A DNA stretch of 64,000 nt from Gnetum montanum (lineage: Eukaryota; Plantae; Gnetophyta). The stretch lies in contig MNCI01002555.1 in assembly GCA_015680685.1 (NCBI GenBank), positions 504,356 to 568,355 on the forward strand, in the 5' to 3' direction. The notes below the pieces were generated by a model that worked only from the letters and a program-made list of their open reading frames with translations, made no database searches and was not told the DNA's origin. The number at the start of each line of letters is the position of its first letter. Position 1 is the stretch's first letter. The translations under genes were made by a program, and so were the position numbers. Below are positions 14,936 through 45,400 of this stretch, in pieces.

Positions 14936-14939
14936 AATC

Positions 14940-15533: not shown

Positions 15534-15538
15534 CTTGT

Positions 15539-16702: not shown

Positions 16703-16707
16703 GAAAT

Positions 16708-16724
16708 TGGCACTAGAAGGAGGG
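16708..16724 (+). promoter_or_regulatory. Primer binding site, tRNA-Asn(GUU)
   Basis: TGGCACTAGAAGGAGGG, near-complement of the plant tRNA-Asn 3' end CCCUCCUUCUAGCGCCA (recalled from memory). Confidence 0.8.
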
Positions 16725-20100: not shown

Positions 20101-21368
20101 GTGAACGTGTGGAGAAGGAACGCCAACGACTAGCCATGGGGCCACCTAAGCCCACTCCGCTTAATGCCATACCCATGACGCCACCTAACAACCAGCCAAA
20201 CGTAGGCAACGAGGGTGAACCATCAAAAAAACATGAACCATCTAAAACAACAGCATCGAGCAAATGTGACAAATCACCGAAACATGAAATAAAACTATTG
20301 GGCCCAATGGACCCAGTCACCGCTGACGCAAATACCCCCAACAGTAGAGACTTGGCAACAGCTCTGACACAAGTCACCCAAGCATTGAAGCAAACGAACA
20401 CTTTGCTGAGCTTGTATGACTTGGTGCTAACATCCCAAACACATCAAGAAGCTCTAGTACGCATGTTAACGTCGATCCCGGTAAGCGAGGACTTGCCCCC
20501 GAACCAACCCGCCATTCATGCGATAATGTACTCGTCTCACGGGACCACTCCTAAACCCTTGAGCTTCCATGATGACAACATTAAGGTGGACAAGAAAATA
20601 GGGGAAATAACAACAGCCCCCATGTTCATAACAATACGCATAAACCAGTTCAAGATACACAGGGTCCATGTAGACGATGGAGCTGCCACAAACGTAGTAT
20701 CGTACCCCATCATTGAACAACTAGGGCTTATTGAATTAATCAAACCAACCGCAACCACATGTTTAAAATCATTCAGTGGGTCACACATAATGGTTAAAGG
20801 CACAGTGACCTTAGACTTCATAGCAGGGGATCAATTTCCCATGTCCGTCGATTTCCTGGTGGTCGACGAAATGCCAGGATTCAACTTAATATTAGGGAGA
20901 CCCTGGTTGGCCCAACTAAAAGCGGTCTCCTCCCCTATACACCAAGAGATCCACCTGCCTTATGAAGGCGGTGAAATCATCATACACAGGGAGGCTACTA
21001 CGCCTATCATTTCCTCACACGTAGACATGGACCAAGGCTCGAAGGTCGAGCTTGAAGAGCCTAAATGAAATGATAAAAATGCGCAACAACTGGTAAACAA
21101 TGAGCCATTAAACATGGAACAAGACCCACCTAAAACAGAAATGCCTGCGTCTGACATTGTACATACAACTTCTCAAGTGGAAACTCACGCAGAAATCATG
21201 CCAACTATCAAAACATTTGAAAACACTAACACGGAAGCCATTCCGTCAGACGTCCCTTGGGCTGAATTACCATTCAATGTGATCAGCGAAGGGGACGCTG
21301 AATACAGAATCATACCCGTTAACACATCACCTAACATTAAAAGGAAGAAAATTAAAAAAGTATTATAA
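17194..21368 (+). pseudogene. Element A gag-protease
   Basis: KYNGETDPNAHL, FPMSLAGRALDWY, Tat-type CDYHQRNGHGTDY knuckle, protease VHVDDGAATNV and LILGRPWL; several stops and frameshifts. Confidence 0.9.
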
Positions 21369-21389
21369 TAATATCAACACGCCTAGTCC

Positions 21390-21650
21390 GAAATGACATT
21401 AAACTATAACATGTCCGAAACGACGTTAAACTACAACTTGTCCGAAATGACACTAAACTACGATAAATTGAAAAACAAAAAAAAAATTATTATTAAACTA
21501 CACTCCCTGTCCGAGATGACACTAAACTATCATGTCTGCAAAGACGTAAAACTAGCCACAATCAGCAATGATCGGCCAACAGAAAAATCCGCCTGTGTCA
21601 TTCGAAATATCCCTCGTTTACGACTGGGGCCCAAAATGGCCTTAAACTAG
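21390..21650 (+). repeat. Degenerate tandem array with (A)TGACnnTAAACT core after the protease
   Basis: gtccgaaatgacattaaactata / gtccgaaacgacgttaaactaca / gtccgaaatgacactaaactacg. Confidence 0.85.
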
Positions 21651-21918
21651 TTCATGCACGTATACTTCGTTTTCCTTTTTGTTCAGCATTTATGATTACA
21701 TCTCTGCATTACATTTAAAACAAAGAGAAAACAAGCCAAAACATTTTACATTGCCGTGTCATGTTTACAATTAGATTCAAAATCAACAAAAAAATTTTCT
21801 TACATGCAATGTTGTACAATTACAAGTGTCAACTATTTTTATCCATCTCAAAATTTTCAAGTTACAACTCCCGTATAAGTTTGAGTCAAAAAACAACAAA
21901 AACCTAGAAATTAAAACG

Positions 21919-24900
21919 CTAAACATCCAGGACGGGAGGGTCATCCCCTTTAAATTCACCAGCATCAGGGACCCCTGCTCCACTAGGGCCAGCTTCTTGG
22001 GCATCATCGCCACCTTCATCCTGCAAATACCAAAAAGAAACAACCAACATAAGAATAAGCGAATGTCAAAATTTTAAACATTATTCAATAAATTAACTTC
22101 ATAAGGATAAAACGCTTACCATCGGAGACCCCCCTAAGCTGAATTCCAGCCGATAAAGGATTTCTTCTTTTGAAACGCTGGCCGAATCTATCCCATCAAG
22201 GCCTAAGTCGACGTCTACCAAAGTCCTTCCTTTGTCGACAACCGACTAGGTAGGACGTTTCAGAGGGAACTCGCCCATCGACACTTCCCCAGAAGTAGTT
22301 GTGATCACCCTTGTAGGCGACTCCATTTCCACAGTTGTATTTTGAGCAAAAGTACCGAAGGAAGAACGAAAACCCAAACCCTCCACAAACATCTCTAGTT
22401 GGCTCTTTTCAATAGACACCTCTTTTAATGACCTCTTGTAGTAATGTTTGTGATTTTTCTCATCCTGACCCCATTTACGAACCTTGGAAGTGAAGGCTTT
22501 TCAATCCTAACATTTAAGGTTCAGGAGATCAATTTGGGCTTTGCGCTCTACCATTCTCCGAGTTAGCGATGCATGACGATTCAGTAGATTCCAATATCTA
22601 GTGTATGTAACCTCGGACGTTCGCCAAGAGCGATCTCCGCTTGGTTTGGCAGCGGTGAACTCGTACTGAGCCTTCAGATCGTCACATTCCACTGAAAATT
22701 CAGAGACTTCCTTTTCTTTTGCCTGAATCTGTAGCCACAACTGCTCAATGGAACACCTACAGGTCCATAATGACTTAGCATTGTGCATAAGGCCTTCTGC
22801 AACTCCATCGTAAACAGGCCTTGGTACCTGTTCCACTTCTGGGGAAAGTGTGGTTAAACTTTCTATGCTAATGCTTTCAGAGGGATCCCATCTCAATTTA
22901 GCACCTACCCACGCGAAAAATACAAATGTTAGGACAATATAAACAAGATGTGAAATTCCAAACCTCTAAATGATTTATACCTATGTCAGGGTGGGTTTCC
23001 TGGATCGGTTTAACAACTTCCTCTGTGATTCCAGCCACAAAATCCATTTTGCTTGGCATTTCAGACCAAGTAAATGGCTCACGGGTACGGAATGAACTAA
23101 CCCTCACGGACCTCTCAGGAGGAAACATTTTCATGGGTACGTCTAGCCGCACCGTCCTGGTCTCGCTGCCTTCATCTGAACAGGATAAAAACACAAAAAT
23201 AAAATACCATAGGAATGACAATTGGTCAAGCAATTCAAAAAGAAATAAAAAGGAAAACATACCATGATCCTTGTCACCCTTTGGGGGGTCGCCCAAGTCC
23301 AGATTTCCCTTAAGGAATCTGCTAAACATTTGGTTGACAGCGTCCTGATCGTCCAACGGTGCGGTTTCAGTGGTATTTTCCTTTAACTCCTCTGTTCCTC
23401 CGCCCTGGCTCTTCTCCATATGTTCCTCGTTATTCTTCTCCGTGTTGGTCTCCTCCTCCTCAGTGATGGTCTCTAAAGCCTACTTTCTCACTTTTTAAAA
23501 ATTAAGCCAAAAATATCAATGACACGTAAGCGATTGAAGTAAAAGTTATAAAAAAAATGAAAATGATAAAGCAATAAGCAGGCGAGGTCCGCTTACTAGG
23601 CATCTTGAAGCATATATGCGCTTCAAGGGTGGCTGGTTCACATCAGAGACTTCCTCAATCGTGCGTTTAGGCCTTTTTAGCTTTGACTTAGCTTGGCCAA
23701 TGGTCTCCTTGATGACCCGTTCTGCCCTTTTAGCAGTGTAGGATACGTCATCTGGCTCCAATCCCAAACTATCATGTGTGTGGATTGAAGCGCCAGATGG
23801 TTCCCCTGTAGTAATAGAAACAGATTCATCAATGCCTTCAGGTGCATCTTGGGATTTTTCTGTCTCAAACAAGTGATTGATCCATGGGCGAGATAGCTGA
23901 CCCTGATCCCGCAGAACAAACTTGTTGTCTACACGGACTACTAGGAACTCGGAAAAATGACGAAGATAACCGGCGAAGAATGCAAAGGTGAAGTGGGATT
24001 GCGCCTCGACATTCGAACGCAACAGCACTATCTCCTTGTGCATGCCTGACAACAAAAATTGTCCCTAGTTATATCGCATGCCCATTTCCAAGACAGTTCG
24101 CATGACACGAACAACCTCAACCCCAAGACACTTCACCTGGGAAAGGGTTTTAGGGAATACCCGTGCCCTGAATAGGGAATATAATTCGTTCACTTCCACA
24201 ACTTTTGCTTTCCCCTGCATCGGGAATCCCTTGGCACCCTTGGCCATGCCTAGCCAATCCTCCAACTCATGAACCATCTGGAGCTCTTTATGAGCTCTGT
24301 CTAATACTATGTTTAAGCCATCTGCCGGTACGCCAAATAAGTTTGAAAAGAACTCGGGTGACAGATGAAAAACTACCTTGACACACTTAATCCGGGTGTT
24401 GTAGTACGAGACAGACTCATTAAAAGAATCCACGATCCCAATCATCTCGCCTATGGATACGTCAGGACTCGAGGTCATAAAGAGCTCCATGGGGCTAACA
24501 TTATCTAGGAAATGAACGATGGATGGTGGAGCTTATCTATGCAACCACTTTTGAGCCTTGGTCACCTCCCCAAACTTCATCGACAAGGTAGTCTCGGTTT
24601 GTCCAGTTGTCACCGGATCCCCACCAAGAGGCGCATCAACTGTAAAAGCAATTTAAAGTGGTCATATCAGCGTAACTCCAAGCAGTTGGATAAACCCACT
24701 AACATATCTAGGAAATGTTATCATTTACTGTTAGTGGTGGATTTAGATGTGCTACCAGAGTCACGAGGGAAGATTGGCCTATTGTCCGACCAATCTTCAT
24801 GAAGCCACCCACGAGCTTTGCACATTGTGAACACTCTGGAGAACTGCTTATGAAAATGGACGATCGCTCCCTTCGTTTGACCCAGTACGATTCCACGAAG

Positions 24901-26350
24901 GGTGTGGCCTATCATGAATGCCTCAAGGGCTGTGCGAGCAAGAGCTAGTCCTTCATCCTTAACGTATGTCCCGTCTGGGTTGGCCTTCGGCCTGTATACA
25001 AATAAATGTCAAAATAAGAAACTAACACCAAACGGCGAAAGGAAACAATAAACTTAAATAGTCCTACCTGTCCACTCGGTACACTGTGCCAGGAGGATTC
25101 TGGAACAATGTGTGCGTGCGGGCAGCTATGAACAGAGTATTGTTGAGGTAGTCTAACCCTCGTGGAAATAGTGCCCACACGCACGTTAATGGGCGTGTTG
25201 ACCTGGGCCCGCGGGTAGAGCCATCCTCGTTAACAAGTGGCCCCTCGTCAATGTCTTCTATGAAGACCATGACACCCTCTATAGCTCTTGGCAACATTGC
25301 CTCAAGCACGCTCCATGTAATCACTTTGCTAAAGTTCGACCAAATGGCCACCTCGAAATTGTCTAACATGAAGGCCAGAAATTCACATGTGCCTTCCCTG
25401 AACGAAACCCCGTTGTTATCCACGGATAGATCCGGGGGAGGCTCCTCAGCCTCAACGGGGCCAACCCATGTCAACATCCCAACAAGCTCAACAACAAGAA
25501 GGAAGTGCTTACTGTCCCTGCAAGCAACCAAGACGCCACGATAAATTAGCCATGCTTCAAAACAGCTCGAAAAGCGAGGGTTTACATCATGAATTGACAC
25601 TTAAAATATAAAAATTCCTAACTACTTACACTCAGCGTATACACCCCATAAACTAGCGTATACGCCGGTGAAACTGTTTACGCTTAGCGTAATACGCTGC
25701 TTAACTCAGCGTATACGTCGACAATGAACTATTTTACGCTCAGCGTATACGCCGAAGAAACCCTCGGCGTATACATCCAAGTTCACTTTTAACGTAAACA
25801 GCCTACGCCGGCACTGAACAAACAAGTTTACACCAGAAAAATAAGTCTATGCTGTAAAGACAACTGCGCACGCATAGCGTATACGCTGAACAAACCCTCA
25901 GCGTGTACACCATCACAATAAACAGAATTTACGCTGATAGAATAAACAAATCACGCTAACAAAACTTCGCGCATAGAGAACTCATGACGTCGTGGCTTAC
26001 GCTGACATAATAGTGCAGGAAAATTGCTTACGCTAATAAAACTGATTATGCCTTGATAGTCCACGCTAATCTGACTTTACGCTATGAAGTTACGCTCGGC
26101 GTATACGCCAAAAACCCTCTACACTGAAAACCCCCCTACGCTCAGCGTATACGCTGAGACTATCTACGCTAAAAAAGAGAAGCAAAGAAATAATAACAGA
26201 GGCAGGGATTAGAGCCTACCTGTGGGATGTCACAGGCCATGACGGGATCCTTGGCCGGGGCAGGCACTGCAGCATGGCTTCAGTCTCCTCCGCAAAGGTC
26301 AAGTCGAGACCCTTCCTCCCCTGGCCTTCCACTTCTTTTCCTTTGCCCAT
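21919..26350 (-). pseudogene. Antisense 8-exon accessory gene: FCP1/NIF-like pseudo-phosphatase, retrotransposon accessory domain and coiled-coil
   Basis: Exons 26350-26220, 25517-25068, 24991-24729, 24639-23597, 23479-23263, 23175-22981, 22904-22120, 22020-21919. All introns are GT-AG, with phases checked compatible through exon 7. A few transition-type stops and probable small frameshifts near the 3' end. Confidence 0.8.
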
Positions 26351-26609
26351 CTCGGCCTCCTTTATGCTGATTGCACAGGTTTACGCTGAAGAAGAGAACT
26401 GTCTACGCTGGCACCTGAAATTCTACACTCCGTGTCTACACTGGGGTTTAGTGTTGGGCGTCTACGCTAATGGTTACTCTTCGGCGTCTACGCTCACGAG
26501 CAAGTTTACGCTAATGCCAGGGCGCGATAGTTTACGCTTACACTTTAACAGTCTACGCTCTGTCGCTTACACTCACGATTCAAAGTAAGAAACAAATGAA
26601 ACCCCCCCA

Positions 26610-26660
26610 TTTTATAGCGCTCCGCTGATGCCGCTGCCGCCGCTTATGCCGCCGTTGCTC
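26610..26660 (-). promoter_or_regulatory. Candidate promoter of the antisense gene
   Basis: TATAAAA on the minus strand at 26616-26610, ~260 bp upstream of ATG 26350, preceded by a GC-rich GCGGC tract. Confidence 0.55.
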
Positions 26661-26774
26661 CCTTTTTGCCATTTTGTGGCTTTTTGCTCATTTTTTGCTA
26701 AAATTTGCCTATGAAAAAAAATAGAAATTACTACGTCCTGGTTCCTTGTGGATCCCATTCTGGATGTTATCACC

Positions 26775-26900
26775 CAGTAAGGCGTTAAACTACCACTGAA
26801 CACTCGGTAAGGCGTTAAACTACCACCTACGGCCCGGTATGGCCTTAAACTGCCATCTTCCAATCCACTTATGGCCCGGTAAGGCCTTAAACTGCCATGC
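26775..26900 (+). repeat. TAAACT-core repeat array before RT
   Basis: gtaaggcgttaaactaccac x2, ggtatggccttaaactgccat, ggtaaggccttaaactgccat. Confidence 0.85.
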
Positions 26901-27008
26901 GTCTCGGTGTGACGATAATCCACCATTATGCATGTACACATAGCTTAAAATCACCAAAAGACACAGAACGATACCCCTTTGCTTATTTAGCCCTCTTTTT
27001 ATTGGCAG

Positions 27009-30000
27009 GAGTAAGCTCAATGGACTGCTAGCATTTAACTGCACCGTTAATCATTGACGGACCATATGGAAAAATTACAAGAGACATTAACATAAACCTC
27101 ATTAACTTAAGTTCACCAACGGACGACGTAGTCATAGCCTCAACACAACAAATAATAGACGACTACAAAGACATGACAAAATTCCTTAACATAGAGGCTG
27201 AGAATATCACTGAAGACTCATTGGCCGAAACTCCCATCGTCATGCCCGATGGGGAAACTAAAATTTTAAAATTAAGCACCTTATTACAACCACCATTAGC
27301 CACAAACATTGAGAACGTGCTTCGGGAAAATATGAAAGCATTCACTTGGTCCTACACAGACATGCCCGGACTAGATCCCCGAATTGTCCAACACAATATT
27401 ATCCTTGACCCGAAGTTGAGACCAGTAAAACAAAAAGCACGAAAGGTTAAACCTGAGGTGGCATTAGCAGTTCGCAATGAGATCACCAAGCTTTATCAAG
27501 CTGGTTTCATTTGGGTTGTCGATTACGCCGAGTGGGTGTCCAACATGGTCATTGTTCTGAAGAAGAACGGAAGCATTCACTTATGCATTGACTTCCGGGA
27601 TTTGAATGTCGCAACCATAAAGGATGACTTTCCTTTACCCAACATTGATCAACTTGTTGAGTCCATTGCTGGGCACGCACTATTATCTTTTATGGACGGC
27701 TTCTCGGGATACAATCAAATACGAATCAACCCGGAGCATCAGCTTCGGACAACCTTTATGACACCATGGGGAACCTTTTGTTACACAATGATGCCCTTCG
27801 GTCTCAAGAACGTCGGGGCCACGTATCAAAGAGTGATGATATTTATCTTTAGTGATTATATATTACACTCACTCAATGACTACGTGGATGACATCGTGGT
27901 TAAGTCAAAAACAGAGGAACAACATGTACAAGATCTCGACTTAGTATTAAAACGTTGTGTGAAGTACGAATTGAGACTCAACCCAAAAAAATGTGTCTTT
28001 GGCGTCAAAACAGGAAAAATGCTTGGATTTATAGCATCAAAAGCAGGGATATGAGTGGACCCCGATAAGGTTAAGGCCATAATGAACCTAAAACCACCAG
28101 GTAATCTTACCGATCTTCGAGGTTTACAAGGCAGATTGCAGTTTATCAGGTGCTTCATAGAAAAATTGACAGATAAACTAAAACCTATGAACCACTTGTT
28201 ACGCAAAAATATCCATTTTGAATGGACTCCGCAGTGTCAACAAGCATTCGATGACATTAAAACGACACTTGCCCGGTTACCTACGGTTTATCTACCTCAA
28301 AACGATAAACCATTCTACATCTACCTCGCTACTTCGGATTCATCCATCGCGTCTATGCTTTGCCAGAAATGAGATGACAGAACCGAAGCCCCTATATATT
28401 ACTTGAGCCACGCATTATTTGCCCACGAGAAAAAGTACAACGACGTGGAGAAGTCATGTTTAGCTTTGGTCTTTTCTTTAAGAAAATGGCGACATTACCT
28501 CTTCCGTAACTAGGTTTACATAATTTGCAAGGACAGTGTACTAAGAGCCATAACAGGGAATATTTATGAAACAAGTCGAATAGCCCAGTGGAAAGCCATG
28601 ATAGCCAAGTTTGACCTGTACTACGTAGTGCAATCATCAGTTAAGGGTCAAGCTATAGCAAATCAAATGGCAACATCACCAACACACGACCAAGCGACTA
28701 TAGACCCAGAGTTCCCAGATGAGAATATAAGCACCATAGACATAGTGCCTAACGACTAGGATGCTATTTTAAAATTTGATGGAGCATCCACCTCTCGAGG
28801 AGGAAGTGCAACTGCTGTCATCACCTATCCCTCCGGAGAGATTCGACCCTGGGCCTATCGTTTCAACTTTCACTATACCAACAACATAGCAGAGTACGAA
28901 GGTCTCCTTAGAGGTCTCATGGCAGCTTTGGCTTTAAACATCACATGGCTTGTAGTCAGAGGAGACTCGCAACTGGTCATAAACCAAGTCACAGACATCT
29001 ATACATGCAAAGCCCAACACTTACAACCATACTGCAACTTGGCAAAACACCTAATGAGGTAATTCGAAAACATTGACATGCAACACATCTCTAGAAATGA
29101 TGACACCATCACAGACGCGTTAGCCACATTAGCGTTAAACATATCACCAAACATGTTCCACATGTTGCCAAGCTCCATAACCAGTTGTGCTGAACCAATC
29201 ACCGACACCCTTGACACGTTGTCGATTGCATCTGTTAGTACAACACATGCGGTAGAATGGTACGATGACATAAAAGAATACCTTTTACATGGTGAAACAC
29301 CACGACATCTAACAAATGCACAGAAAGGCGTAGTGCGGAAACGTTCTAAGCAGTATACCCTGGTAGGGGACACACTGTGTCGTCGATCCTACGAAGGCAT
29401 ATTGCTAACATGCGTTAGTAGTACCAATGCCCAAACTATTATTGAACAGGTATATGAGGGACTATGCAGAGGACACATAGCACCAAAAGCCATGGCAACA
29501 AAGATCAGACGCTTGGGCTATTATTGGCCACACATGGAATACGACTGTCTCTTCAAAGTCAAAACATGTAGTACTTGTCAAAAACATAGCAATATGATAC
29601 ATGTCCCACCAAATGAGTTGCATACAGCGCAAATCACGAGGCCCTTTCAAAAGTGGGGGTTGGACCTCATCAGCCCAATAACACCCCCGTCTTCCGCAGG
29701 CCATAGTTTCATTATAACTGTGATAGAATACTTCATGAAGTGGGTAGAAGCTGCTCCCCTTCGAAAAACCACATCTAAACATGTGTGAAATTTCATTCTT
29801 GAAAATATTGTAACCCGCTTTGGCATTCCCATGACAATCATCACTGACAACGGGCCACAGTTTAGCAGTGCTGAGACCAAAACCTTTTGTGAAAATTTAG
29901 GGATCAAACACTCGTTTTCATCCCCTTACTATCCTCAGAGCAATGGACAAGAAGAAGCAACAAACAAGACGATTATTACAATACTTAAGAAAATGCTTAC

Positions 30001-30496
30001 CCAGAGCAAAAGAAAATGGCACGAGCAATTGACATACGCATTGTGGGCATATCGTACTACGCACCAAACTTCGATAGGTAAGATGCCATACAGTCTTGTT
30101 TACGGTTCAGAAGCTGTTTTACCTTTGGAATTACAGGTACCATCTTTAAGGATCACACTTTCGGGGCTCCTCGATGATGGGCAAAACAATGATCTACGCA
30201 TCCTTGATCTTGACTCGGTGGAGGAAGAACGCGTGCACGCCCTTGATCAGATCGAATGGTATCAAAAATAACAACGGCAACGACATCGGCATGACATCAA
30301 CAAGCGCCCTATGAAAGAGGGTGACCTTGTGCTTAAAGCTGTTCGGGAACACCCGGACAAATTATCAGCCAACTGGGAAGGGCCTTACTTGGTCATTAAA
30401 GCATTTGACAATGGAGCATTCAAGCTAGCCGATATGGAAGGAAACGAATTCACCAATACAACCAATCACTTGTTCTTAAAGCTGTCCTACATTTGA
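27009..30496 (+). pseudogene. Element A pol: RT, RNase H, additional (archaeal-type) RNase H, integrase
   Basis: CIDFRDLN, FMDGFSGYNQI, MPFGLKN, YVDD; YLATSD; FDGAS...TNNIAEYEG...GDSQLV; GYYWP, WGLDLI, TDNGPQF, NWEGPY. Confidence 0.95.
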
Positions 30497-30519
30497 GTAC
30501 AAGCTCAAGTACGTGAAGA

Positions 30520-30920
30520 GTCCTGGAATTACGACTATAAACTGATACCATAGCTCGTCCTGGAATCATGACAATAAATTGATACCACAGCTCGTTCTGG
30601 AATCATGACAATAAACTGATACCACAGAACAGTCTTGGGTTATGACTTAAAATTGACACAACAACTGTCCTGGCATCATGACAATAAATTGATACCCCAC
30701 AGTGTCCGCAATGACGATAAACTAGCACCCGTCCGGCATGATAGTAAACTGCCATCGTCACAACCATCAGAGTCTACTAAGACTATAAACTAGCTTGCCT
30801 CCTCATAGTCCACTAAGACTAAAAAATGGCAATGTAACATCTGCCACGATGCTAAACAGGCAATGTCCAAGGGGTTATGACATAAAACTAACCCATGATA
30901 GTCCACCAAGACTATAAATC
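30520..30920 (+). repeat. TAAACT-core tandem array after the integrase
   Basis: About 11 units such as tcctggaatcatgacaataaactgatacca. Confidence 0.9.
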
Positions 30921-31930
30921 AGCAAGTTCATCTCTGGTTCATCTATCTACTGCCACATTTAAGCTTCATCACTGCATCGCCCGCCATCAGAAGATCCTAC
31001 CAACGTTGCTGCCATTGACATACAATGCTTGAAATCTCTTTCGGCATCTTTGTTCCATCTACCGCTGTGTAAGACTAAGCTCGATTATTCACTCATGGTT
31101 TTCTTGTCTCCTTGGAGTTGTGTTTACAGGATGACACCCAAAGGTTATCGCACAAGAATGCATTTCATCAGAAGCAGTAAGATGGGACGATGTTCACAGC
31201 ACACATGGCGAGACTAAATCAAACCGTTCACTAGTACATTCCCATTCCCGGTATATTCGCTATCTTTTTACCGACATCCGATACACCGAATACATTCAAA
31301 ACTTTGAGCACACTGTTGCACGCGGCAACACGTTAAAGCAGTTGCAACACACGGCATGGCACCTGAGCATGAGTACAAGATCAACACAAAAAAAAAGACC
31401 CTTGGCACCTCCCACATAAGCCATGGGAGGAAAGGTAGTTGTCTCAAAACCAAGTACTCATGTCCAAAAATGGTTAAGAAGCATCCAGTTGCATGGCTTT
31501 GGCTCTCCGCCAACAGGTCCCCCCTAAACATTAAACACGGGCCCTATTCCTCCAAAGAATGTAACACATCCTCCCGTGGCTTTTGTCTTGCCAACAAGTT
31601 CTCTTGAACACTAACCAAGAGCCTTGTTCCACCAAAGGACACACATCGCATGTCTGAACTTTGAGTCTGCTAAACAATGGCTATTGACAAGGACCAGCAT
31701 GCCGCACACCCGAGCATCCCATTTCCCAAGTGCAATCCCTTGGGTAGTGATCAATTCCCACAATCTCTGTTTTCCTACCAGCCACAAACTTTACCTTCCC
31801 AATCTCATGTACTACTGAACATAGTGCGATGATGTCTAGTCAAGTGGCAACGGACAAGATCTCTACCGAGTTACTCGTGGTGTTTTGCACTTCTTTGTCG
31901 ACGCTTCTCAGGTCGATTCTTCCAAGCGTC

Positions 31931-31946
31931 AACAAAGAGGGGCCAA
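31931..31946 (+). promoter_or_regulatory. Polypurine tract of element A
   Basis: AACAAAGAGGGGCCAA directly before the TG of the 3' LTR; nearly the same sequence precedes the LTR of B. Confidence 0.85.
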
Positions 31947-33130
31947 TGAAACACCACAAAATTTCGAGCTTGGTACTTCTCTAGCAAGAGGCAGGTCCTT
32001 GGGACCCACGGACAACCACGACTACATTTGGTGTCACACACTACAACTTTGGGGATCAAAATGTTTAATTTTCACTAAGTATGCAGTACCGGCGTATGCG
32101 CCCAGCGTCTACGCCCGACATCCACAGCGTATATGCCCAGCGTATACACCTAGTGTAGACATCCAACTTACATGCCCGACGTACATGTACGCTCGGCAGG
32201 TATGGCAAATGTTTACGCCCGGCATGGAATCTCCAAAGATATAATGAAAACAGCACCAAAGAGTAAGGATTGAAGCAAGTCGGCAACCATTAGCGTATAC
32301 GCCCAGTGTATATGCCCAGCGTATACGCCCACCCATTGTCAGCATATACGCTCGGTGTATACGCCCAGCGTCCACAGCATCTACGCCCAGCACATCCAGC
32401 GTATACGCCCAGCATGTACGCCCAAAGTCTACGCCCACTTGATACAGCGTATACACTTGGTAGATGTAATATGTTGAACACTTGTAAATTTTATGTCCTT
32501 TTTGCACCCGGTCAACATCCACGTGTCGCCCAACCCGAGTCTAGCATAACAACCGGTATAAAAGCCCCACTTTTCTACTTGTACAGGGGTTGGTTGGAAA
32601 AAATCCCAGAGCATACCAGAGAACATTTACGCTGTGCACTAGAGCTAAAAACCCTTTTATGTTGGATAGTCCTGTACGCTGGGCACACAGTCTCTACGCT
32701 CCGCCTACAGTGCGAACCAACCGAGTCATCCCTACATCCACCAGGGCTTTTCGTCCGCCTTGTGTTCCATCACAACTGCATTAGACCGGTGCACTGTACT
32801 TTCATTCTGTAATATCATTGTTTATAGTTTACACTAATTTCTTACATGTGTTCTGTTTACGCTTGTTTACATTTACGCCCTATTCGCATCTGTTATGCTG
32901 TTTACGGTCTCGTTTACACCCGTTACGCCGTTTACGCATAACCCAGCGTATAGCACTTCGGCATACGTTCAGGGAAATCCTTGTCTGATCTGCATGCGGA
33001 CCACCAAAGGTACTCTACCTTCATGCATTCCAACTCATCCTCAGGCGAAGGTAGGGTCTTCTGTGCATGTCCGGTGATCCCATGGTCTCTATTTTCTTCC
33101 AGCTGGAGACCGACAATTTCGGACAGTACA
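31947..33130 (+). repeat. Element A 3' LTR (TG...CA)
   Basis: Repeat of the 5' LTR, followed by TSD CTTGT. Confidence 0.96.
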
Positions 33131-33135
33131 CTTGT

Positions 33136-36100
33136 TAGTGAGCTTGCAAACCCATAGTGCTTTCACACTTGAAAGTGCTTACTTACTTGCTACCTCATAC
33201 ACGAGATGGGGCACTTGCTTCACCTTAGGTGGAAACTCAGGGATGGTGTCCATCCTAGCCACCTTACTTAGATCCTAGTAAAGCTTAGAACCTGTTGGCA
33301 TACAACAAGCAAAATAGCACTAGCCACAGACTAAGTTTTAAATTGGTAAAGTGAGATAAGCAAAGCAACATTACAACCATATCAAGCTTGGGATCCACTT
33401 GCTATAGGCAGTCCACCATGTCCTCAACCAAACCTTTCACGAAGGTGAACTTGTGAGATGCCTCTACCCATGGCTTCATGCGGTAGCTAGTGGTGGATGC
33501 TAGACCACTAGCAGGTACCTCTACAACTACAATGTAATAATGCATTTAGCAATAGTCAAGAAACCAAAGATGTAGTAGCAGAAAGAGAGCAATGATAGAT
33601 GGTAATGCAGAGCACATACCTAGCAAACCCTTAGGTGTCAAAGTGGGGGGGATCACCTAGTTACACACCATCAAAGAGGCTGTTAAAATCATCTCCATGA
33701 GGGGGGTGGAAGGGGGGAAGTAGTCCCTCATCCTCCAATTGTTGGAGCACCTTTACAACCTCATGTAGCTTCTCCTCTTGTGTTTCTCCCTTCTTAGTCT
33801 GAGGAGTGATCTCCTCTGCTATTGCTTCTACCACTTCTTCAACAACCCTCTTACCTAATTTTCACAATTTACACACATGTCAAAGTTAGCATGTTAGCAC
33901 TTAGCATAAAAACTTACCATAGCATAAAATGAAACATAAAAATATAAATATACAAAATGCAAAAAAAATTCATACAATGACTCATACTAACCTACCACAT
34001 CTATGCGCAATTTACAAAACTTCAAGTGGATCTTCTTACTGCCTACCTTCTCGACCTCTTATGTAGGCTTCTTCGTGGGAGGTGGCCTCTTAATCTTTGT
34101 TTTAGACATTTCCACCATCTTAGTAATGTAACACTCCACCTTGGTCATGTTCATGATACCAACTGGTGGGGGCTCACCTACAGTATCCTGTGAGTAGTGA
34201 GATAGCCCTAAGGGACCTTTTGTCATTACGGAAAATGACTCATCAATTTCATTTGGGGGTCTTGTGCTTGTGTGGTAGCAAATAGATGCTTGATTCATGG
34301 ATTTGAAAGCTATGTGTAATCTTGCACCACCCATCGTTTATCCTCACGAACCACCAAAAACTCCACAAACCTTTGTAGGCATCTTACAAAGAAGGTGAAA
34401 TGCACATGTGACCTCCCCTAGAGGTTGTGGCATAGCTTGACAATCTCAACATGTATGCCATTTGCAAGGTGAGAGGCCCACTTGTACCTTGTGCCCTTCC
34501 CTAGTACATCCCTCATAACTTGAGCCTACTCTACTCCAAGGATTTTCCCTTGGGAGAGAAACTTTAGAAACACATAGGTACAAAAGAGAGGGTAAAGTTC
34601 ATAGACCATTGGCACTTGAATGTTCTTTATGAGTATGCTTTTGCGAGATTGAGAAGTACCTAGCCACTCCTCAATATCACCTTGATGGTCCACCTCCCTA
34701 TTGGTCTTATCAATGACCGATGGGCCATCAGAGGAAAGGCCAAAGAAGTTCACAAAGAAGTCATCAGTAAGGTCTAAGACTACCTTCACACCACGTACCT
34801 ATGTGACAAAGTGGTGAGCATTGTCGTTGAAGGAATTAATAATGGTAACCATTTTGGCCACTAGGATACTTGGGCTAAGGGCTAAGAAAAGGTCCATTAG
34901 CCTAGCCCACATAAGCCTATTGGTCAAATCTATTTGGGCCTTGTGGCATAACTAATGCTACATCCCTTCAACATTCCCATACTTCATAATGAAGGTGGCC
35001 TCAGTGTGGCTCATAGCTACTATGATGACCTCTTCAAAAGTGACTGAAGTTATAATATAGGCAAAGAAAACAACATTAGCATCATGCAAAAAGGGAAAAG
35101 TAGCAAACACATGAGAGCAAAGAAATAAATGACTTAAGCATGAAAAAAGGTGTGCATGATGGTGGTGGTGGTGGTGTTGATGCCTCCTTGATGCTAGGTA
35201 CACCATCCACCTACTTTGCATCCAACTAGCCATGCGTCTAACACCTCTTGTAGGCCTTTAGATATTGATGAGGGCACTCTACCAAGTTAGATCCAATCTA
35301 CCCAATCATCCTTGCATAGAAACTCTTGCAGGTTGAAAATTCTTATAGGGTAGTGTGAGTCAAGTTTAGGGATCCCTCCTCATCATGCAGGCCATGCTCA
35401 CTAATGCTAAACCTGGTAACAAACATGAGTAGTTAGCACCTTCGTATGAGTTGATAGGTAAACGAATAATGCAAAATCATAAGAACACATACCCTCCTAC
35501 ATAGTACATCATCCCAAGTGGGTTCTGGAATAGGGTATGCACACGTTGAATAATAAAGAGAGTGTTGCTCTTACTATAGCAACTAAACTCTAGCATCTTC
35601 TAGATCCTGGATAAAGACCTAATATCCCTAGGGCCTTAGCTTGAACCTCTTACTCTACCATCACTAGTAGTGGGCTCATTGGACATGAACCTTAGAATGC
35701 CTTAGTTTTCCCCAAGCAACAATGTCTCCATGATGACACTAGTAGCTTCTATGACTAAGTGTGACCACATCATCACACTGAAGTATTGGAGCAGGAATTC
35801 CAGGAATTCACATGCTCCTAGTTAGAACCATACTACCTGGTGACCCAACTGTGTGTATGGTGTGGGCATGTTTGGTATGGGCTCACTCATATAGTAGAGG
35901 ATGCCAATGAGCTCTACCATGATGAGGATTGGCTTCAACAATATCCTACAACCACAAAAAGAAACAAAGAAAGCATTAGTATACATTGGATGCACAAAAA
36001 TACATTAACTTACACTTAGCAAAATTAGCAAAGTTAAACATAGAGTAGCATAATTTAGTAGAAAATATGTCCTTAGGGTCCCTTGTGGGCCCCCTGAGCA

Positions 36101-36870
36101 TAGGATGTTGATACATGTATTTAATGCACTTGGTGCTCACTAGGGTACAACACTAATGTAGCATTACCATTTTGCGTTACATTCACATGTTGTGCATTGT
36201 CTTTGTTTGCATATTTTGGTAGTTTGGCATGTTTGGTTTGCAAATTCATCATTTTGGTAAAGCTTTGGTACACATCACATTTTTTTTCATAAGTAATATC
36301 CTATCACTTTTCATTCTTGCACTTAGCATTTTTTTGCATTTGACATTTCATCACTGCATTTGATAAAATTCTTAAATTTTTTCTAACTCTGGGTAGTGTT
36401 ACCGAGGGTGTCCATGAAAAATTCTAACTCTAGGTTATCCCTTCCTAGGAGTGTAACCCAAGAAAAATGATAAAAAAATTCTAACTATTAGCTACACTTC
36501 CTAGGGAGTGTAGCCCCTAAAATCATCAAATTTTTTCTAATTGTCGATTATGCTCCTTAGGGAGCATAGCCCCCAAATCATGAAAGAATCCAAAAAAATA
36601 AAAAAAAAATGGTTGGGAGTATAGCTCTAAAGTGCTCAAAAAAATACAAAAAGAATCTTAACTTCTTCTCCCACTGTCGTGTTGTACCTTCACCTAAGGC
36701 ACCATGCCCCATTCACGTCATCGCCCAGCCCCCTTATACTCTACCATTATGTGTTCAGGTGCTTGTCATGGTCGCATTCTATCATGGCCTCTCCTCCCTA
36801 CCCTTGCCTCCTTGTCATAGCTATCATCACCATAGTTATGCTATTCATCTTGCCCTAGCCTCAGGTCTAA
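33136..36870 (-). pseudogene. Element B antisense spliced gene, homolog of 21919-26350
   Basis: FCP1-like exon at ~35490-35945 (VELIGIL, GACEFLEFLLQYFSVMMWS, NTLFII, HTLFQNP); VKVVLDLTDDFFVNFFG...ELYPLF...LGVE exon; acceptor at 33293-33292 followed by GSKLY*D...KQVP. Confidence 0.8.
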
Positions 36871-37720
36871 AAACATGAAAAATGAAAAAAAATCACCCGC
36901 TGGCACTAAGTGCCATGCAATTCCATTTCTTTTCTCAATTCCATTAGCCCTAGGGCCACCAGCAAACCCCAATTTCTCTACCTCACACATGCCAAGGAAA
37001 AAGGAGAGGAGGGATGAGGGTATCCCATGATCCCCTATGCTCAAGTCACAGTCACCTTGGTTGTGGTCACAAAGCCCTCATATTTTGCCTTATCCCCTTG
37101 CCCTAGCTACAACCCAAGAAAAAAGAAAGCCCTCATTTTTTCTAATTCTCCCATGCCCCACATAGTTCCAAGAATAAAACCCTTGCCCTGTAAGGCCATG
37201 AAACTAATCACCCATGCCCATGCAATGCACACCTAGAAGAAGAAAAAAAAAATGTGCAAGCAAAACCCTTGCCACCACAAATGTGCCCTCCCTTTTTGGC
37301 CATAGTAGCCATCATAGCCACTGCAGTGGTGGTCTCTACCAAGGGTGGCCCACCCAAAATCTCAAATCCCCAATGCAAGTTAAAAGGAGTGAAATCCCAA
37401 AAAGAAAAAGAGATTGCACAAGGGTAGAGTGTAGTAGGGTACTTGGCGGACGGTGGCTCTCTCTATTCCTCCATGTATGCCTGGGATAAACACTGCACTG
37501 CTTCTTTTCCCTCATCCACATTGATGAGTCTAGGGTGTTGAAATTCACTTTGGTGGATCATGCTAGTTGTCATACTTTGACTATCAAGCTCTAGGTGCTA
37601 CACTCTAATTACTATGCTCTGGCTTCACTTCTTATTCCAACTGCCCTACGCTCTATAACTTCTCATTTTCACTTTGGAAAATGATCGTTTGACCTTGATG
37701 AAATATGCATATATATCCTC
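35642..37720 (+). repeat. ~2.08-kb segment repeated directly at 56319-58399
   Basis: Near-identical over its whole length; differences are mostly transitions. Confidence 0.95.
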
Positions 37721-38252
37721 TTGAGGTAATTGAATGTGCTACTTACCAAGACAACATCCCACACTTAGGAAAATTTTCCAAGTTTTTTTTGAACATAGCA
37801 AGGGACCAAGCATAGTGAGGGGTGAGCGTAGCAGCTAGAGTTAGAAAATTTCTAGCAGTCCCTAGACTTGGCGAATTTTCTAAATTTTTCTAATTTCCTA
37901 GAAAACACCTAGCCTAACTACATGTTCCAAGAACTCTTGGCCTTACTTAAACCTACACAGTTTGCATAAACCATGGTCTCCTATGACCTTAAAATAGCAA
38001 ACCATGGTCCACTATGACCTTAAATTGGCAAGCCATGGTTCTCTATGACCTTAAACTGACAAACCATTGTTTGCTATGATCTTAAACTAGCACCCATGGC
38101 TTTTTGAGGCTTGAAATTGGCCCGCATGCTTGCTTCTATAGCCCCACCTTTGCATACTTAGGTGAATTTTCATTGCATTGCTTTTTTTAATTTATGCACT
38201 TTGACTTCATCTAAGACAAGTGTGGCTTGGTATTTTTCTAGTTGTTTTGTAG

Positions 38253-41200
38253 GATACTAGGCAAGATTACAACATGAGCATGTGTAGGCATCTTCCTTCA
38301 CCTCTGGTCCTCACTGAGCCTCATGATGACCTCATGCGATACATCGATACTAAATGCCTAGATCTTGAGCCTAGAGTCTATGATAAACATATAACATCTG
38401 TAGAGGCACCACTAGATTGGCCAGACCATCTAGTCAAAGCTCTAGATCTAGAGGTAGGCAACGTCATTGAGGATCCCCTTATTGAAGTCCCTATAATGAC
38501 ACTTAGTGAAGAGGCAAAAACATTAAAACTTAGTTTCTTGTTAGAGCCTCAACACACCCAGAGCATTGCTAAAGTCTTCAATGACAATATCAAGGCATTT
38601 GCATGGTCTTACAAAGACATGGCAGGCCTAGATCCTCACATAGTGCAACACAATATAATCTTCGATCCTTGCATAAAACTTGTTAAGTAGAAAGCCTACA
38701 AGTTTAGGCCTAAGGTGGCATTAGTAGTCTGCGATGAAATCATCAAGATTTACAAAGTTGGTTTCATCTAGGTCATTAACTACATAGACTAGGCCTCCAA
38801 CATCATGGTTGTGCCCAGAAAAAACTGAAGCATATGCATTTGCATAGACTTTTGGGACTTGAATAAGGTGATCATTAAAGATGACTTCCCATTACCTAGT
38901 ATTGATTAACTAGTTGATACTACGGCTGGCGATGCCTTTTTTTTCTTCATGGACAAGTTCTTTGGTTACAACCAAATTTAGATTCACCTAGAGCATTAGC
39001 TTAGTACTACCTTCATGACCTCTTCAGGTATGTTTTGTTATAGAATGATTCCTTTTAGACTAAAGAACGTAGGAGAAAACTATGAATGTGCTATGATATA
39101 CACCTTTAGCAATTATTTGCTAGATTTTCTTAATGACTACATTGATGACATAGTAGTTAAGTACAAAATGGAACACAACCATGTAAATGACTTAGATCGC
39201 ATACTCAAATGCTGCCGTAGACATGACCTTAGGTTGAATCCTAGGAAGTGTGTCTTCGGTGTTAAAACAAGTTTTATGCTAGGTTTCGTAGTATTAGAAC
39301 CATGCATACACATAGAACCCAATAAGGTTAAGGTTGTTATTAACTTAGCACCACCGGATCATCTTAAGGAGCTACATGGTTTACAAGGCAGACTGCAATT
39401 CATTCATAGGTTTATCACATGGTTGACTAATGAGTTACAACCCATGCAACATCTACTCAAAAAGGGAGTCCAATTTCAGTGGATGTCTCAATGCCAAGAG
39501 GCATTTGACAACCTTAAATGGAAGTTGGCTCAACTTCCAACAGTCTACCCTCCGCAAGGAGATAAACCATTTTACATCTACCTTGCAACCTTTGACATGT
39601 CCATCACCTCTCTACTTTGTCAAAAGTGAGATGATGGCTCAGAGGTCCCTGTATACTACCTAAGCCATGTGTTAGTGGCCCATGAAGCAAAATACAATGA
39701 TGTGAAGTAGAACTACCTTGCCTTAGTCTCTGCACTCAAAAAGTGAAGGCACTATCTTTTCTATAGCTAGGTAAACATCATTTGCAAAAGCAATGTACTC
39801 TGGGAAATCACTGCAAATATTTACAAAAGTAGTTGAATTGCATGGTGGAAAGCAATAATCATAGAGTTTGATGTGTAATACATAGTGCAAGAATTAACCA
39901 AAGGTCAAGCAATAGCCACATAACTTATGGCTTCACCAATAAATGATCAAGCAATGATAGATCCAAAATTTCTGAATGAGCATGTTAGCAGCATAAGGCA
40001 AGTGCCTACTAACTTTGAGGTAATTTTACACTTTGATGGTGCTTCAACCTCTCAATGGGGTAGTGCTACTGCCATAATCACATTTTCCTCTAGGGAGGTC
40101 TAACCCTTCACTTACCACTTTGCATTTCCTTGTACTAATAATGTAGTGGAGTATGAAGGTCTCCTTAGAGGCATCTTAGCAGCCCACGACCTAGGAATTC
40201 AAAACCTAGCGATTTGAGGTAATTCATAGTTAGTCATTAATCAAGTCATAGAGGTTTATGATTGTAAAGCATAATAATTACAACCTTACTATGAATTGGT
40301 AAAGCACTTGCTCAAATGATTTGCAACTGTAGATATCCAATAGATTCTACGTAATGAAAATTCTATTGCCAACGCACTAGCTACATTAGCCTTAAGCATC
40401 ACACCTAACATGTTTCATGCCTTGCCTACCTCAGTAACAGATTACATTGAGCCTATCACACAAAGAACTAACATTTCATCCATAGCCACAACAAGCATGA
40501 CCCACATAGTAGAGTGGTATGATAACATTAAGTCATACCTTCAATGGGGTGAGCCTCCACAACATCTAACCACTACCTAAAAGGATGCAGTGCGAAAATG
40601 GTCATAACAGTACATCCTTGTAGGTGATAATACACTATGTCACAGATCCTATGATGGCATACTACTAACCTATGTTAGAGATAGCGAAGCACAAACAATT
40701 GTTGATCAAGTTCATGAGGGACTGTGCAAAGGTCACATAGCACCTAGGGTAATGGCATTGAAGATCAAATGATTAGGCTACTATTGGCCTTATATGGAGT
40801 GCAATTGCATTTCTAAGGTTAATATGTGTGACATGTATCAATGGCATGATAATTTAATGCATGTGCCACCCACTGAACTACATACCATGTAGATCACATG
40901 GGCATTTCAACATTGGGGGTTGGATATCATAGGACCCATCATGCCTAAGTCTTTCTTAGGACATAGCTTCATCATAATCGTAATTTAATATTTTACCAAG
41001 TGGGTTAAAGCTATTCCCCTTAGGAAGAAAACATTGCAATAGGTTTGCAAGTTCATCCTTAACAACATAGTGATCCAATTTAGTCTACCCATGACTTTAG
41101 TCATAGATAACAGGCCATAGTTTAGCAATATAGAAACCAAACCCTTTTGCAAACACCTTGGCATTAATCATTTTTTTTCATCATCATACTACCTGCAAGC

Positions 41201-41755
41201 GAATGGCCAAGCAAAGACTACAAATAAAGTCATTGTCAACCTTCTAAACAAGATGCTCAGTAGCAACAAATAGTGATGGCACGAGTAGCTAGTTTATGCA
41301 CTATGGGTCTACCACACAACATGTAGAATAGCAACAACCAAGATGTCATATAGCCTTGTGTATGGGTTTGAAGCAATTTTCCTTTTAAATTGCAGGTTCC
41401 ATCACTTTGCATGATCCTCTCAAGCTTCATTAATGAGGCCCAGAATAATAAGTTGAGAATCATTAATCTTAACTCTATAGAGGAGGAGCTTGTGCAAATG
41501 CTTGATCACATTGAATGGTATCAAGAAAAGCAATGGTAGAAGCACCATCACAATCAACATCAATGCCCAATCAAGAAAGGGAACTTAATCCTCAAGGTTG
41601 TTTGTGAACCCATAGACAAATTCTTAGCCAACTGGGAAGGACCTTTCTTGGTCACTAAGGCCTATGACAATGGAGCATTCAAGCTTGCTAATCTAGATGG
41701 CAATGAGTTTGCCAATTCGATCAACCATTCATACCTGAAGCCGTACTATGCCTAG
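38253..41755 (+). pseudogene. Element B pol (RT-RH-aRH-INT), heavily decayed
   Basis: FAWSYKDM, YIDD, FDGAS, GYYWP, WGLDII, NWEGPF; colinear with element A pol. Confidence 0.92.
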
Positions 41756-41799
41756 TGCGTAGCACCACATTAATGATGAAGCAAGGTAAAAAAGCATAT

Positions 41800-43844: not shown

Positions 43845-45400
43845 TGAAACACCACCAAATTCGGGCAACAACACCTAAATAGCAAATTTTTCTAAGTGTC
43901 AACATAAGGAAAATTTTTCTAAATGCTTGGCCCATGATTCCACGACTGAGACTACATCCCAAAGTGTAGTTAGTGTAGCATGCAACATAGAACCAGATTT
44001 GCAAAATTTTCTATGTGTTAATAGTAGCTGCAAAAAATTTTCTAAGTGTTGTGCTATGCTTACATTCTCCCTGCTATGCTCTAGAGTGTAGCTAGCATAG
44101 CATGCACTTCAGTGGCTAGTTTTGCCTAAGTGTCAAGACAAAATTTATGAGGTTGGCTTAGCATGGAAGAGGCAGTTGGTAGATTTTCTAACTCTTGAAG
44201 CTAGCCTTCCTGCTATTCTCTATAGTGTAGCTAGTGTAGCCTAGATTGAGATTGCAAGTTCTACCAATTTTTTCTAAGTGTTAGTGCTACATTCTCACTC
44301 TTCCTACTATGCTCTAGAGTGTAGCTAGTGTAGCTAGCACTAGACTTTAATTTTTGTAGAATTTACCTAACTATTGGGTTATGCTCTAGAGCGTAGTTGG
44401 CATAGCAATGCAGGGCAGCCTCCAAACGCCTCTAGAGCTTAGCATTGGTCTCCATCTTAACTCCAACGCCTCTCTAGCAAGTAAGATCAGCAATTTGCAT
44501 CTCTTTTACACCCTCTAGGTCCCAAAATTGTACCTACACTTGATCCCACTCAAGAGAGGGGAGAGCATAGTCCCAGAGCGTAGCCTCCAAATTGCACTAT
44601 TTTGTACTATTTGCAGGTACATTGTGGTCTCTTCAGCTTTGGCACATGTAGTCTTGGTAGCATAGTCATAGTTTAGTAGTTTCTTGGGGTCCATTAAAGC
44701 ACACTAGAGCATAGCACCTATTGGTCCAGTGGGAGCGTAGCTATGGTTAGCATAGCCTCAACTACCCCCTTTGCCACGTGGTGTCTGATCTGCACTTCAC
44801 ATTAACCCTAACCCTATGAATACCCCTACATTTCACATTTTAGTGGTTGGCATTTTTGAGGGTTGGAATATTAAAACAGTTGGTTGGTAATTTCATTTTA
44901 GTAATTGGCACTTTGGCACTAGCACCCTTGCACCTAAATTCCCTTAACACCTTGGAAAAACTTTGGGACACTACCTTTGCATACCATAGCATACTGCAGT
45001 CCATAAGACACTATAGTAGCCAACCCAACAAGCTTAGACTTCATGATTGACATCAGTTTCATAGCCTAGACATCCTAGAGACTATGACTATGCTACCTAC
45101 TATGCCCATATGTACACCACATACCTCCTTGCCTCTCTTTTGCAATTGTTATGCTCCCCTATTTGGGGTGGTGCCATTCTTCCTCTCTCAAACTCCTTTA
45201 CATTTTTCAAACATTTTCTTTGGCATTTAGCACCAGACTTGCATTTTTTTTGCTACTATGCATGCATTTGCATGTTTGCACTATAGTTTTCACACTAGAA
45301 AACCCTACTACACTTGGGCTTAGTTAGTCCTGGTACCACTGAAAATACCATGCGAACCCCTAGCACCCATTCATCAAAATAATCTGTAAGTCTTAGTTCG
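43845..45400 (+). repeat. Element B 3' LTR, right boundary uncertain
   Basis: PPT followed by TGAAACACCAC, the same start as the element A LTR; internal TTTTCTAAGTGT and AGTGTAGCTAG repeats. Confidence 0.65.

Follow-up and report, generated by a model that had tools for sequence, protein, structure and literature searches.

The window analysed here, a 64,000-nucleotide stretch of the Gnetum montanum genome (contig MNCI01002555.1, positions 504,356 to 568,355), contains a nest of Tat-type Ty3/gypsy retrotransposons. Two of these elements, referred to as A and B, carry an intron-rich gene in the spacer between protease and reverse transcriptase (RT), on the strand opposite to gag and pol. Comparison of the two copies shows purifying selection on the encoded protein, and the gene is spliced in RNA from relatives of A. 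The protein, which would include an inactive phosphatase-like domain, may be a regulator of the element that carries it. All positions are those of the window.

An antisense gene in the protease-RT spacer of element A

In element A, a spacer of about 6 kb parts the gag-protease region (ending at about 21365) from pol (starting at about 27030). It is occupied by eight minus-strand exons, running from 26350 to 21919, which are joined in one frame through seven GT-AG introns. All introns are T-rich; one measures 702 nt, and the others range from 76 to 117 nt. The gene frame contains 5 stops in 1,056 codons, compared with 55 and 79 in the other two frames. A scan for TATA-like promoter elements returned hits at chance level only. 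The exons are as follows.

26220..26350, minus: exon 1, with an ATG at 26350 and a phase-2 GT donor in frame with exon 2
25068..25517, minus: exon 2, NIF/FCP1-like domain without catalytic aspartates, from domain and structure matches
24729..24991, minus: exon 3, from the frame model and A-B homology
23597..24639, minus: exon 4, the best-conserved domain, with two stops in the A copy; A-B homology, and a family lead from the B copy
23263..23479, minus: exon 5, acidic; its donor agrees with an RNA joint
22981..23175, minus: exon 6; its acceptor agrees with the same joint
22120..22904, minus: exon 7, predicted long helices, with three stops in the A copy; frame model and helix prediction
21919..22020, minus: exon 8, terminal and acidic; loose read ends fit an exon 7-8 join

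Introns of an antisense gene can survive retrotransposition, since they are not recognised for splicing in the packaged sense transcript. By this established logic, the gene would keep its introns because they lie on the strand opposite to the packaged RNA.

Conservation of the gene between elements A and B

Element A is inserted in exon 7 of the corresponding gene of element B, and exon 7 of B is therefore found in two parts, one on either side of A. B is decayed, and several of its exon ends are ambiguous.

35493..35945, minus: B exon 2, NIF-like, decayed, by homology to A (as are all B exons below)
35120..35412, minus: B exon 3, 3' end ambiguous
34016..35043, minus: B exon 4, one frameshift, donor ambiguous
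33620..33854, minus: B exon 5, both ends ambiguous
33378..33526, minus: B exon 6, donor ambiguous
33131..33291, minus: B exon 7, 5' part
14937..15538, minus: B exon 7, 3' part, separated from the 5' part by element A; nothing further of B follows, through truncation
38253..41755, plus: B pol, 57% identical to A pol at the amino-acid level

Over the 881 codons compared in exons 2-7, A and B proteins share 33% of amino acids. Similarity, scored against 300 shuffles, is highest in exon 4, where 102 of 254 residues are identical (z=91), followed by 24 of 77 past the frameshift (z 15). The preliminary description of the region at 33136-36870, made from the sequence alone, had reported this homologous exon. 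Exon 2 aligns without gaps (50/146 identical residues, z 40-41), and exon 7 is similar in both its 5' part (z 19) and its 3' part (15538-14937, 56/191 residues, z=40), the latter overlooked in the preliminary description. Homology is weak in exons 3, 5 and 6 (z 6.3, 3.0 and 7.6), and a putative B exon 1 (36870-36694) has no detectable similarity to A exon 1 (best z 3.1 on 6 residues). Sequence left of 14937 lacks exon 8, gag and a 5' long terminal repeat (LTR) of B, and no gag, protease or pol relic of B was found left of 15530.

Exon structure is also shared. Intron 2, at either end, and the acceptor of exon 7 (33291 in B) show the identical codon and phase in the two copies, and the exon-2 and exon-4 acceptors keep their phase with a one-codon shift. 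Of the boundaries that had been described as matching, the exon-7 acceptor and the exon-2 donor are confirmed exactly, and the exon-2 acceptor is one codon off. In the decayed B copy, introns 3-6 have ambiguous donors and introns 4-5 have ambiguous acceptors.

The pattern of differences between A and B shows that the protein has been under purifying selection, as had been proposed. Nucleotide identity at codon positions 1, 2 and 3 is 0.51, 0.62 and 0.31, and the proportion of differing non-synonymous sites (pN) is 0.44, compared with 0.81 for synonymous sites (pS); synonymous divergence is too saturated to yield a dN/dS value. Matches at the three positions number 71/91/47 of 146, 74/81/31 of 120 and 25/29/13 of 49 in three gap-free blocks, a fourth, mis-registered block (24/29/26 of 100) being left out. 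When the same differences were placed at random in one gap-free block, 23% amino-acid identity was expected (maximum 33% in 2000 trials), compared with the 50% observed. DNA similarity between A and B does not rise above shuffles in introns 1, 2, 5 and 6 or in the LTRs. The earlier view of a clear protein similarity over diverged DNA, in elements with different LTRs, is borne out.

The pol genes of A and B are 57% identical in amino acids (pN 0.24, pS 0.79), and the antisense gene evolves about twice as fast as pol at amino-acid sites. Since gene and pol are equally saturated at synonymous sites, the gene is as old as the pol split. Stops are found in 5 of 1,056 codons of the gene and 7 of 1,156 of pol in A, and in 29 of 963 and 32 of 1,156, respectively, in B. 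In both copies the gene has decayed in step with its own pol; it was therefore very probably intact when A and B inserted, and inherited together with pol. Equal synonymous saturation, a shared place and orientation, and stop densities that track pol support retention by the element rather than recent capture, and lend support to the earlier suggestion that the gene was functional for the element. The gene-level comparison covers two families, A and B, which are too few for setting a tree of the gene against an RT tree.

In element C, the terminal exon is kept, as first described, in the form of a relic (54060..54155, minus strand) with a good acceptor upstream and 15 of 30 amino acids identical to A. 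Nucleotide identity at the three codon positions is 0.70/0.70/0.53. No match to exons 1-7 was found in C. Because exon 8 alone is kept, and the adjoining non-coding DNA is likewise similar to A, C provides weak evidence for conservation of the gene. The notion of a family-level module is supported for A and B and is weak for C. An exon-6 match in the C spacer (z 4.0, score 39 with a shuffle maximum of 38, one of 32 comparisons) was taken as chance. The spacer of C (54156-56318), in which exon 8 and a motif array are accompanied by no recognisable exons 1-7, may represent a deletion derivative or a remodelled gene.

Transcripts

Reads from four RNA runs with the same species label were mapped on A at 80% likeness. 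The runs yielded 1,366, 301, 416 and 256 reads, of which 1,143, 237, 342 and 232 are less than 90% alike to A; most of them therefore come from relatives of A. A joint at 23175/23263 skips exactly intron 5 (23176-23262), which has GT-AG ends on the minus strand. It is supported by three reads with three different starts in the poly(A) run X4, one of the four runs; the other two of the three joints listed lie in tandem repeats. The gene model was finalised after a first read mapping, so that the joint does not count as blindly predicted. Loose read ends at 22019 (X4, 6 reads) and 22124 (X2, 7 reads; X5, 5 reads) fit the exon 7-8 join by eye, with 24 of 29 letters matching at one, and 19 of 26 at the other, compared with 6 of 26 for the intron. 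The antisense gene is thus spliced in RNA from relatives of A.

In poly(A) data, exons 8-2 have mean depths of 5.9 and 3.8, gag-protease has 1.3, intron 1 with the upstream region 0.5-0.7, and RT 10.7 and 4.0; these values are affected by conservation bias, and the bin 24918-25218 is inflated by 35-nt partial matches. First mates in run X1 fall mostly on the plus strand over the exons (12.8 vs 0.7), and the same bias is seen in gag (6.8 vs 1.0) and RT (17.1 vs 9.4). Poly(A)-type reads in X3, from the same study, suggest that this bias corresponds to minus-strand RNA.

One count lends no support to selection. Among 21 exon differences between reads and A, 8, 9 and 4 fall at codon positions 1, 2 and 3 (40 rows listed, 1,321 others); this count was set aside, as it is confounded by the decay of A and by the selection of the rows listed.

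Some poly(A) reads of X4 match short pieces of B exons 4 and 2 (34659-34697 and 35757-35788) and then diverge. Judged by eye, they may derive from a third, more distant expressed family.

Predicted domains

Three weak but concordant results weakly relate exon 2 to NIF/FCP1 domains. The Pfam match to PF03031 (NIF) has E=0.0064 and a score of 16.6, under the curated cut-off of 21.8. The Atlas score is 0.92 (194/256 features), and all 30 matches belong to NIF clusters. In a search of the PDB, UBLCP1 (3shq) was the sole match (E=0.71 and 0.24). The catalytic motif of NIF/FCP1 phosphatases is DxDx(T/V). At the corresponding inferred register, the first strand of exon 2 reads E-L-V-G in A and E-L-I-G in B, and the residues opposite the UBLCP1 aspartate pair are non-acidic in both. 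With the two copies agreeing on aspartate loss, the exon-2 product is likely a pseudophosphatase. An AlphaFold model of exon 2 alone, from a single sequence, was uninformative (pLDDT 40).

A 90-residue piece of B exon 4 matched unnamed Atlas clusters at 0.92, PF20167 clusters at 0.91 (domain present in 39% of members) and a PF03078 cluster at 0.90 (domain present in 77% of members). PF20167 and PF03078 are described as related families (PMC11728184). Exon 4 accordingly bears a weak resemblance to Transposase_32/ATHILA-ORF1, which is taken as a lead only. Exon 7 is predicted to form two long helices (pLDDT 74 in 1 of 5 models) and a coiled coil; its structure matches are generic helices, none at E<=0.001. 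PF04195 (TRP28) had no Pfam match in stop-free pieces of exons 2-7, a search in pieces that has limited sensitivity. No protein relatives were found for exon 2 (257 longer candidates), for a 155-residue exon-4 piece (1.84 billion representatives) or for exon 4 read through with X at stops (1,489 candidates).

Motif arrays

Short repeats of the motif AGCGTA, or variants of it, are clustered in the following regions.

15539..16702, plus: A 5' LTR, 13 AGCGTA copies (0.6 expected), with 9 further copies in the 5' leader to 17200
25518..26700, minus: intron 1 and upstream region of the A gene, likely promoter; 26 copies, 19 in intron 1, 7 upstream and none in exon 1
31947..33130, plus: A 3' LTR, 13 copies
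35946..37950, minus: B intron 1, putative exon 1 and upstream region, with 14 motif copies in deaminated form (2.4 expected)
43845..45350, plus: B 3' LTR, right end approximate, polypurine tract and LTR start resembling those of A; 21 deaminated copies (3.5 expected)
55600..56318: C spacer, 13 copies of AGCGTGA and deaminated forms (0.4 expected); the same motif occurs in the C LTR, 46731-48600 (11 copies, 0.9 expected)

In A, 0.5-0.9 copies are expected in each of the four regions that hold arrays. The array of highest density covers intron 1 and the upstream region of the antisense gene itself. Coding parts are almost devoid of the motif: none is found in gag-protease, one in exons 2-8, and none in pol and the 3' region. 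Deaminated forms are also present, at a weaker excess, in the 3' region of B (8 vs 3.1 expected). The motif variant shifts with the family, in the LTR and in the gene region together, and the matching deaminated motif ties the B LTR at 43845 to the B gene. A family-specific motif of 6-7 nt is hence almost confined to non-coding parts, including an intron, which is the layout of VANC-type systems.

Possible functions of the protein

We tentatively propose, with a probability of roughly 0.45, that the protein binds the family motif and counteracts silencing or activates in trans, in the manner of VANC and plant mobile domain (PMD) proteins, with the dead phosphatase serving as a docking module. 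The protease-RT spacer of these Tat elements holds a conserved antisense gene with introns, which is spliced in RNA from related copies. According to the proposal, its product, likely a catalytically dead FCP1-type phosphatase combined with a predicted coiled coil and an accessory domain of transposon type, would bind the short repeated motif of its family both in the LTR and in the likely promoter of the gene itself. Binding would keep the element transcribed, making the protein a self-activating or anti-silencing regulator, and the dead phosphatase fold would dock on phosphorylated transcription or chromatin proteins. A narrower version is unlikely, though worth stating: a VANC-like circuit evolved by a Tat lineage of a non-flowering plant, in which a DNA-binding protein fused to a dead C-terminal-domain (CTD) phosphatase would sit on the motif at both promoters and dock RNA polymerase II or chromatin factors.

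Several points weigh against the proposal. Motif binding, an effect on methylation and activity of the protein are presumed by analogy. The motif patterns were picked after inspecting the regions; in unbiased 7-mer lists, the same motifs rank on top in the A and B regions. A and B have nearly the same motif core though their proteins are 33% identical, and C has a motif array without exons 1-7; both facts would fit binding by a host factor. On the protein side, the NIF score lies below the Pfam cut-off, exon 4 has no Pfam match, and the PF20167 and PF03078 matches of exon 4 (154 and 151 features) are below the Atlas mark of 170 features and rank 14th and 20th, behind unnamed clusters. As for RNA, the minus-strand excess in X1 spans gag and RT, so that host read-through could supply the spliced reads, and RNA of the B family was not seen, the 117 reads in the four runs being all partial with no joint listed.

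The closest competitor, only somewhat less probable, is a genuine accessory gene whose protein acts elsewhere in the cycle, for instance in RNA handling, particle or nuclear import, or the steering of integration through contacts such as those with RNA polymerase II; the motif arrays would then be enhancers for a host transcription factor. All gene-level evidence fits such a role equally, the motif core is similar in the LTRs of A, B, C and D, and exon 7 matches nothing but generic helices. Import and regulation are both mentioned as open options for antisense ORFs in reviews (PMC7264820). What speaks for the regulator instead is the location of the densest array, in intron 1 and the upstream region of the gene itself, with the variant shifting by family in both places, together with the exon-4 lead, which suggests an accessory family of transposons.

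An improbable alternative is capture of a host gene or nested DNA transposon, carried along as a passenger with a selection signal that predates its capture. Seven introns and an NIF-like domain are indeed reminiscent of a gene from a cell or a DNA transposon, the name of PF20167 is that of a transposon protein, and the lack of exons 1-7 in C indicates that at least one copy can do without the gene. Against this, site and orientation of the gene agree between two families that are saturated at synonymous sites in pol as well, its stop density follows pol in both copies, and intron 1 carries the LTR motif. No convincing terminal inverted repeats bound the gene, and no close cellular homologue was found in searches that may lack host proteins.

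Still less credible is a useful antisense RNA, acting as double-stranded RNA that tunes silencing, with an incidental protein. Such an RNA-only role has been raised (PMC7264820), and minus-strand RNA appears dominant across the element in run X1, but conservation at codon positions 1 and 2, with third positions and introns randomised, requires selection on the protein. Chance similarity, or an antisense-frame artefact of other coding DNA, could account for the weak or absent similarity of exons 1 and 5 and is refuted by z values of 40-91 for exons 2, 4 and 7, a spacer position outside gag-protease and pol, and the exact RNA splice joint.

Host element A and neighbouring elements

Element A is complete, and its further features are listed below.

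15539..33130, plus: element A, Tat-type Ty3/gypsy, with an LTR pair, a 5-bp target duplication on both sides and a site at 16708 resembling a primer-binding site (PBS)
17706..21365, plus: gag-protease region with stops, matching PF03732 and aspartyl protease; homology to C runs to about 21365
27032..30490, plus: pol, with domain matches to RT, RNase H (RH), additional RNase H and integrase (INT)
21386-21461, 26771-26855, 30520-30696, 37968-38099, 41793-41857 and 53461-53522: short tandem arrays

With the order gag-PR-RT-RH-INT between LTRs (PR, protease), a PBS, a polypurine tract and a target duplication, A is Tat-type in structure. The Kimura two-parameter (K2P) distance between its LTRs is 0.097. 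An additional RNase H (PF13456, E=1.3e-12, 28760-29056) lies between RH and integrase, a layout corresponding to structure 1 of Tat elements (PMC10508981), which is reported from most land-plant groups and as the sole Tat structure in ferns (PMC10508981). The RT of A is at most 59% identical to 120 listed relatives (best 45-59%). In a tree of A and 22 of these relatives, without an Athila outgroup, A falls on a long branch (1.45), in no supported group and apart from the sampled angiosperm RTs. No ORF of 120 residues that might correspond to the upstream sense PMD ORF of Ogre occurs between the A 5' LTR and gag.

A pyrimidine-rich, acceptor-like site precedes the pol-start methionine in A (27008) and B (38252), within plus-strand regions 26988-27030 and 38230-38290. 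Pol may be expressed from its own spliced sense RNA; a donor after protease common to A and B was not found, and the RNA joints listed on A include no sense-strand joint that removes the spacer. The tandem arrays, with 27-37 nt units and similar-looking cores, stand directly after protease, before RT and after integrase in A, B and C. The observed/expected CpG ratio is 0.14-0.19 in B (33136-41755), compared with 0.68-0.77 in A, which is consistent with long methylation of B.

A further fragment, B' (56319..58402, minus strand), is a 96% copy of B from exon 2 to the upstream region. It differs from B by 3.7%, and both stops in the 100 codons compared are common to the two. B' therefore is not independent of B, and is likely a duplicate of a copy in which decay had already taken place. 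Element D (58400-63658) is inserted in the B' fragment; it has a different LTR, in which AGCGTA occurs 5 times (0.4 expected), and a gag-protease 54% identical to that of A, and its spacer lies beyond the window. Other features include a long interspersed nuclear element (LINE) with a DUF4283 ORF1 and RT (4444-8806, minus strand) and a decayed coding relic (45400-46730, minus strand) with a 122-residue open stretch (46079-46447), without a Pfam match or a match to A proteins. At 63375-64000, a stretch of 284 nt is perfectly duplicated in inverted orientation on the two sides of a single N, which is probably an assembly artefact.

Comparison with known systems

Antisense extra ORFs are known in Retand/Tat elements, namely Grande gene23, RIRE2 and the TRP28 ORFs, between pol and the 3' LTR (PMC7264820, PMC11963269, PMC4408406). 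The gene described here resembles them in being antisense to gag-pol in Tat Ty3/gypsy elements and conserved across families, with internal tandem repeats and a likely promoter of its own. Retand-type genes, however, are plain ORFs, mostly TRP28, located 3' of pol, whereas the Gnetum gene has a protease-RT position, seven introns, an NIF-like domain and no PF04195 match. Ogre elements share with A a gag-protease/RT spacer and an additional RNase H between RH and integrase (PMC4408406, PMC6317226), but the Ogre spacer is described as an intron and the PMD-coiled-coil ORF lies 5' of gag in sense (PMC4408406, PMC6317226); the spacer of A is about 6 kb long and holds an antisense gene. The extra antisense gene brtn of the fungal Boty Gypsy element (PMC8365987), located 3' of pol (PMC7264820), has the antisense orientation in common with it.

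NIF/FCP1 phosphatases of the HAD type (PF03031; UBLCP1, 3shq) share a sequence pattern with most of exon 2, but A and B lack the catalytic aspartates and fuse the domain to putative transposon-type domains. A transposon-derived domain is paired with a phosphatase in transcription control in MAIN/MAIL1/PP7L and MAIL3 (PMC7156037); these are host genes with phosphatases of the PPP family, not HAD, and offer an analogy only.

In the literature covered, from which subscription journals are largely absent, we found no intron-rich antisense gene in a protease-RT spacer and no NIF domain in an LTR element. The main text section on a screen of 121 angiosperm genomes, its supplementary chart aside, does not name an NIF/HAD domain (PMC9289625). 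Papers on Tat elements from plants without seeds treat the position of RNase H, and the portions of PMC13468544 covered here mention neither antisense genes nor introns. One survey was directed at single ORFs that lie outside the polyprotein region and have at least 250 codons (PMC6317226), and would miss an intron-rich gene in the protease-RT spacer. Compared with known antisense accessory genes, the position, the seven introns, the likely pseudophosphatase and the candidate target motifs are new.

The nearest parallel in layout is found in VANDAL elements, in which an exon-intron accessory gene goes with short motifs, specific to the family, that are concentrated in introns and at the non-coding ends (PMC5735166). 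VANC binds these motifs and removes methylation (PMC5735166), and is structurally related to the PMD protein MAIN (PMC13547354); PMD proteins associate with specific motifs and oppose Polycomb silencing (10.1101/2024.09.27.615353). VANDALs, in contrast, are Mutator-like DNA transposons for which binding and demethylation are proven, and the likeness of the Gnetum gene to VANC is one of layout. What the extra ORFs of plant Tat and Athila elements do, and where they come from, has long been an open question (PMC4408406, PMC7264820). In this case, the regulator hypothesis is made directly testable by a candidate motif, evidence of splicing and a captured domain of recognisable host type. If the VANC-like reading is true, sequence-specific anti-silencing would occur in LTR retrotransposons as well as in DNA transposons, and could bear on the growth of very large plant genomes.

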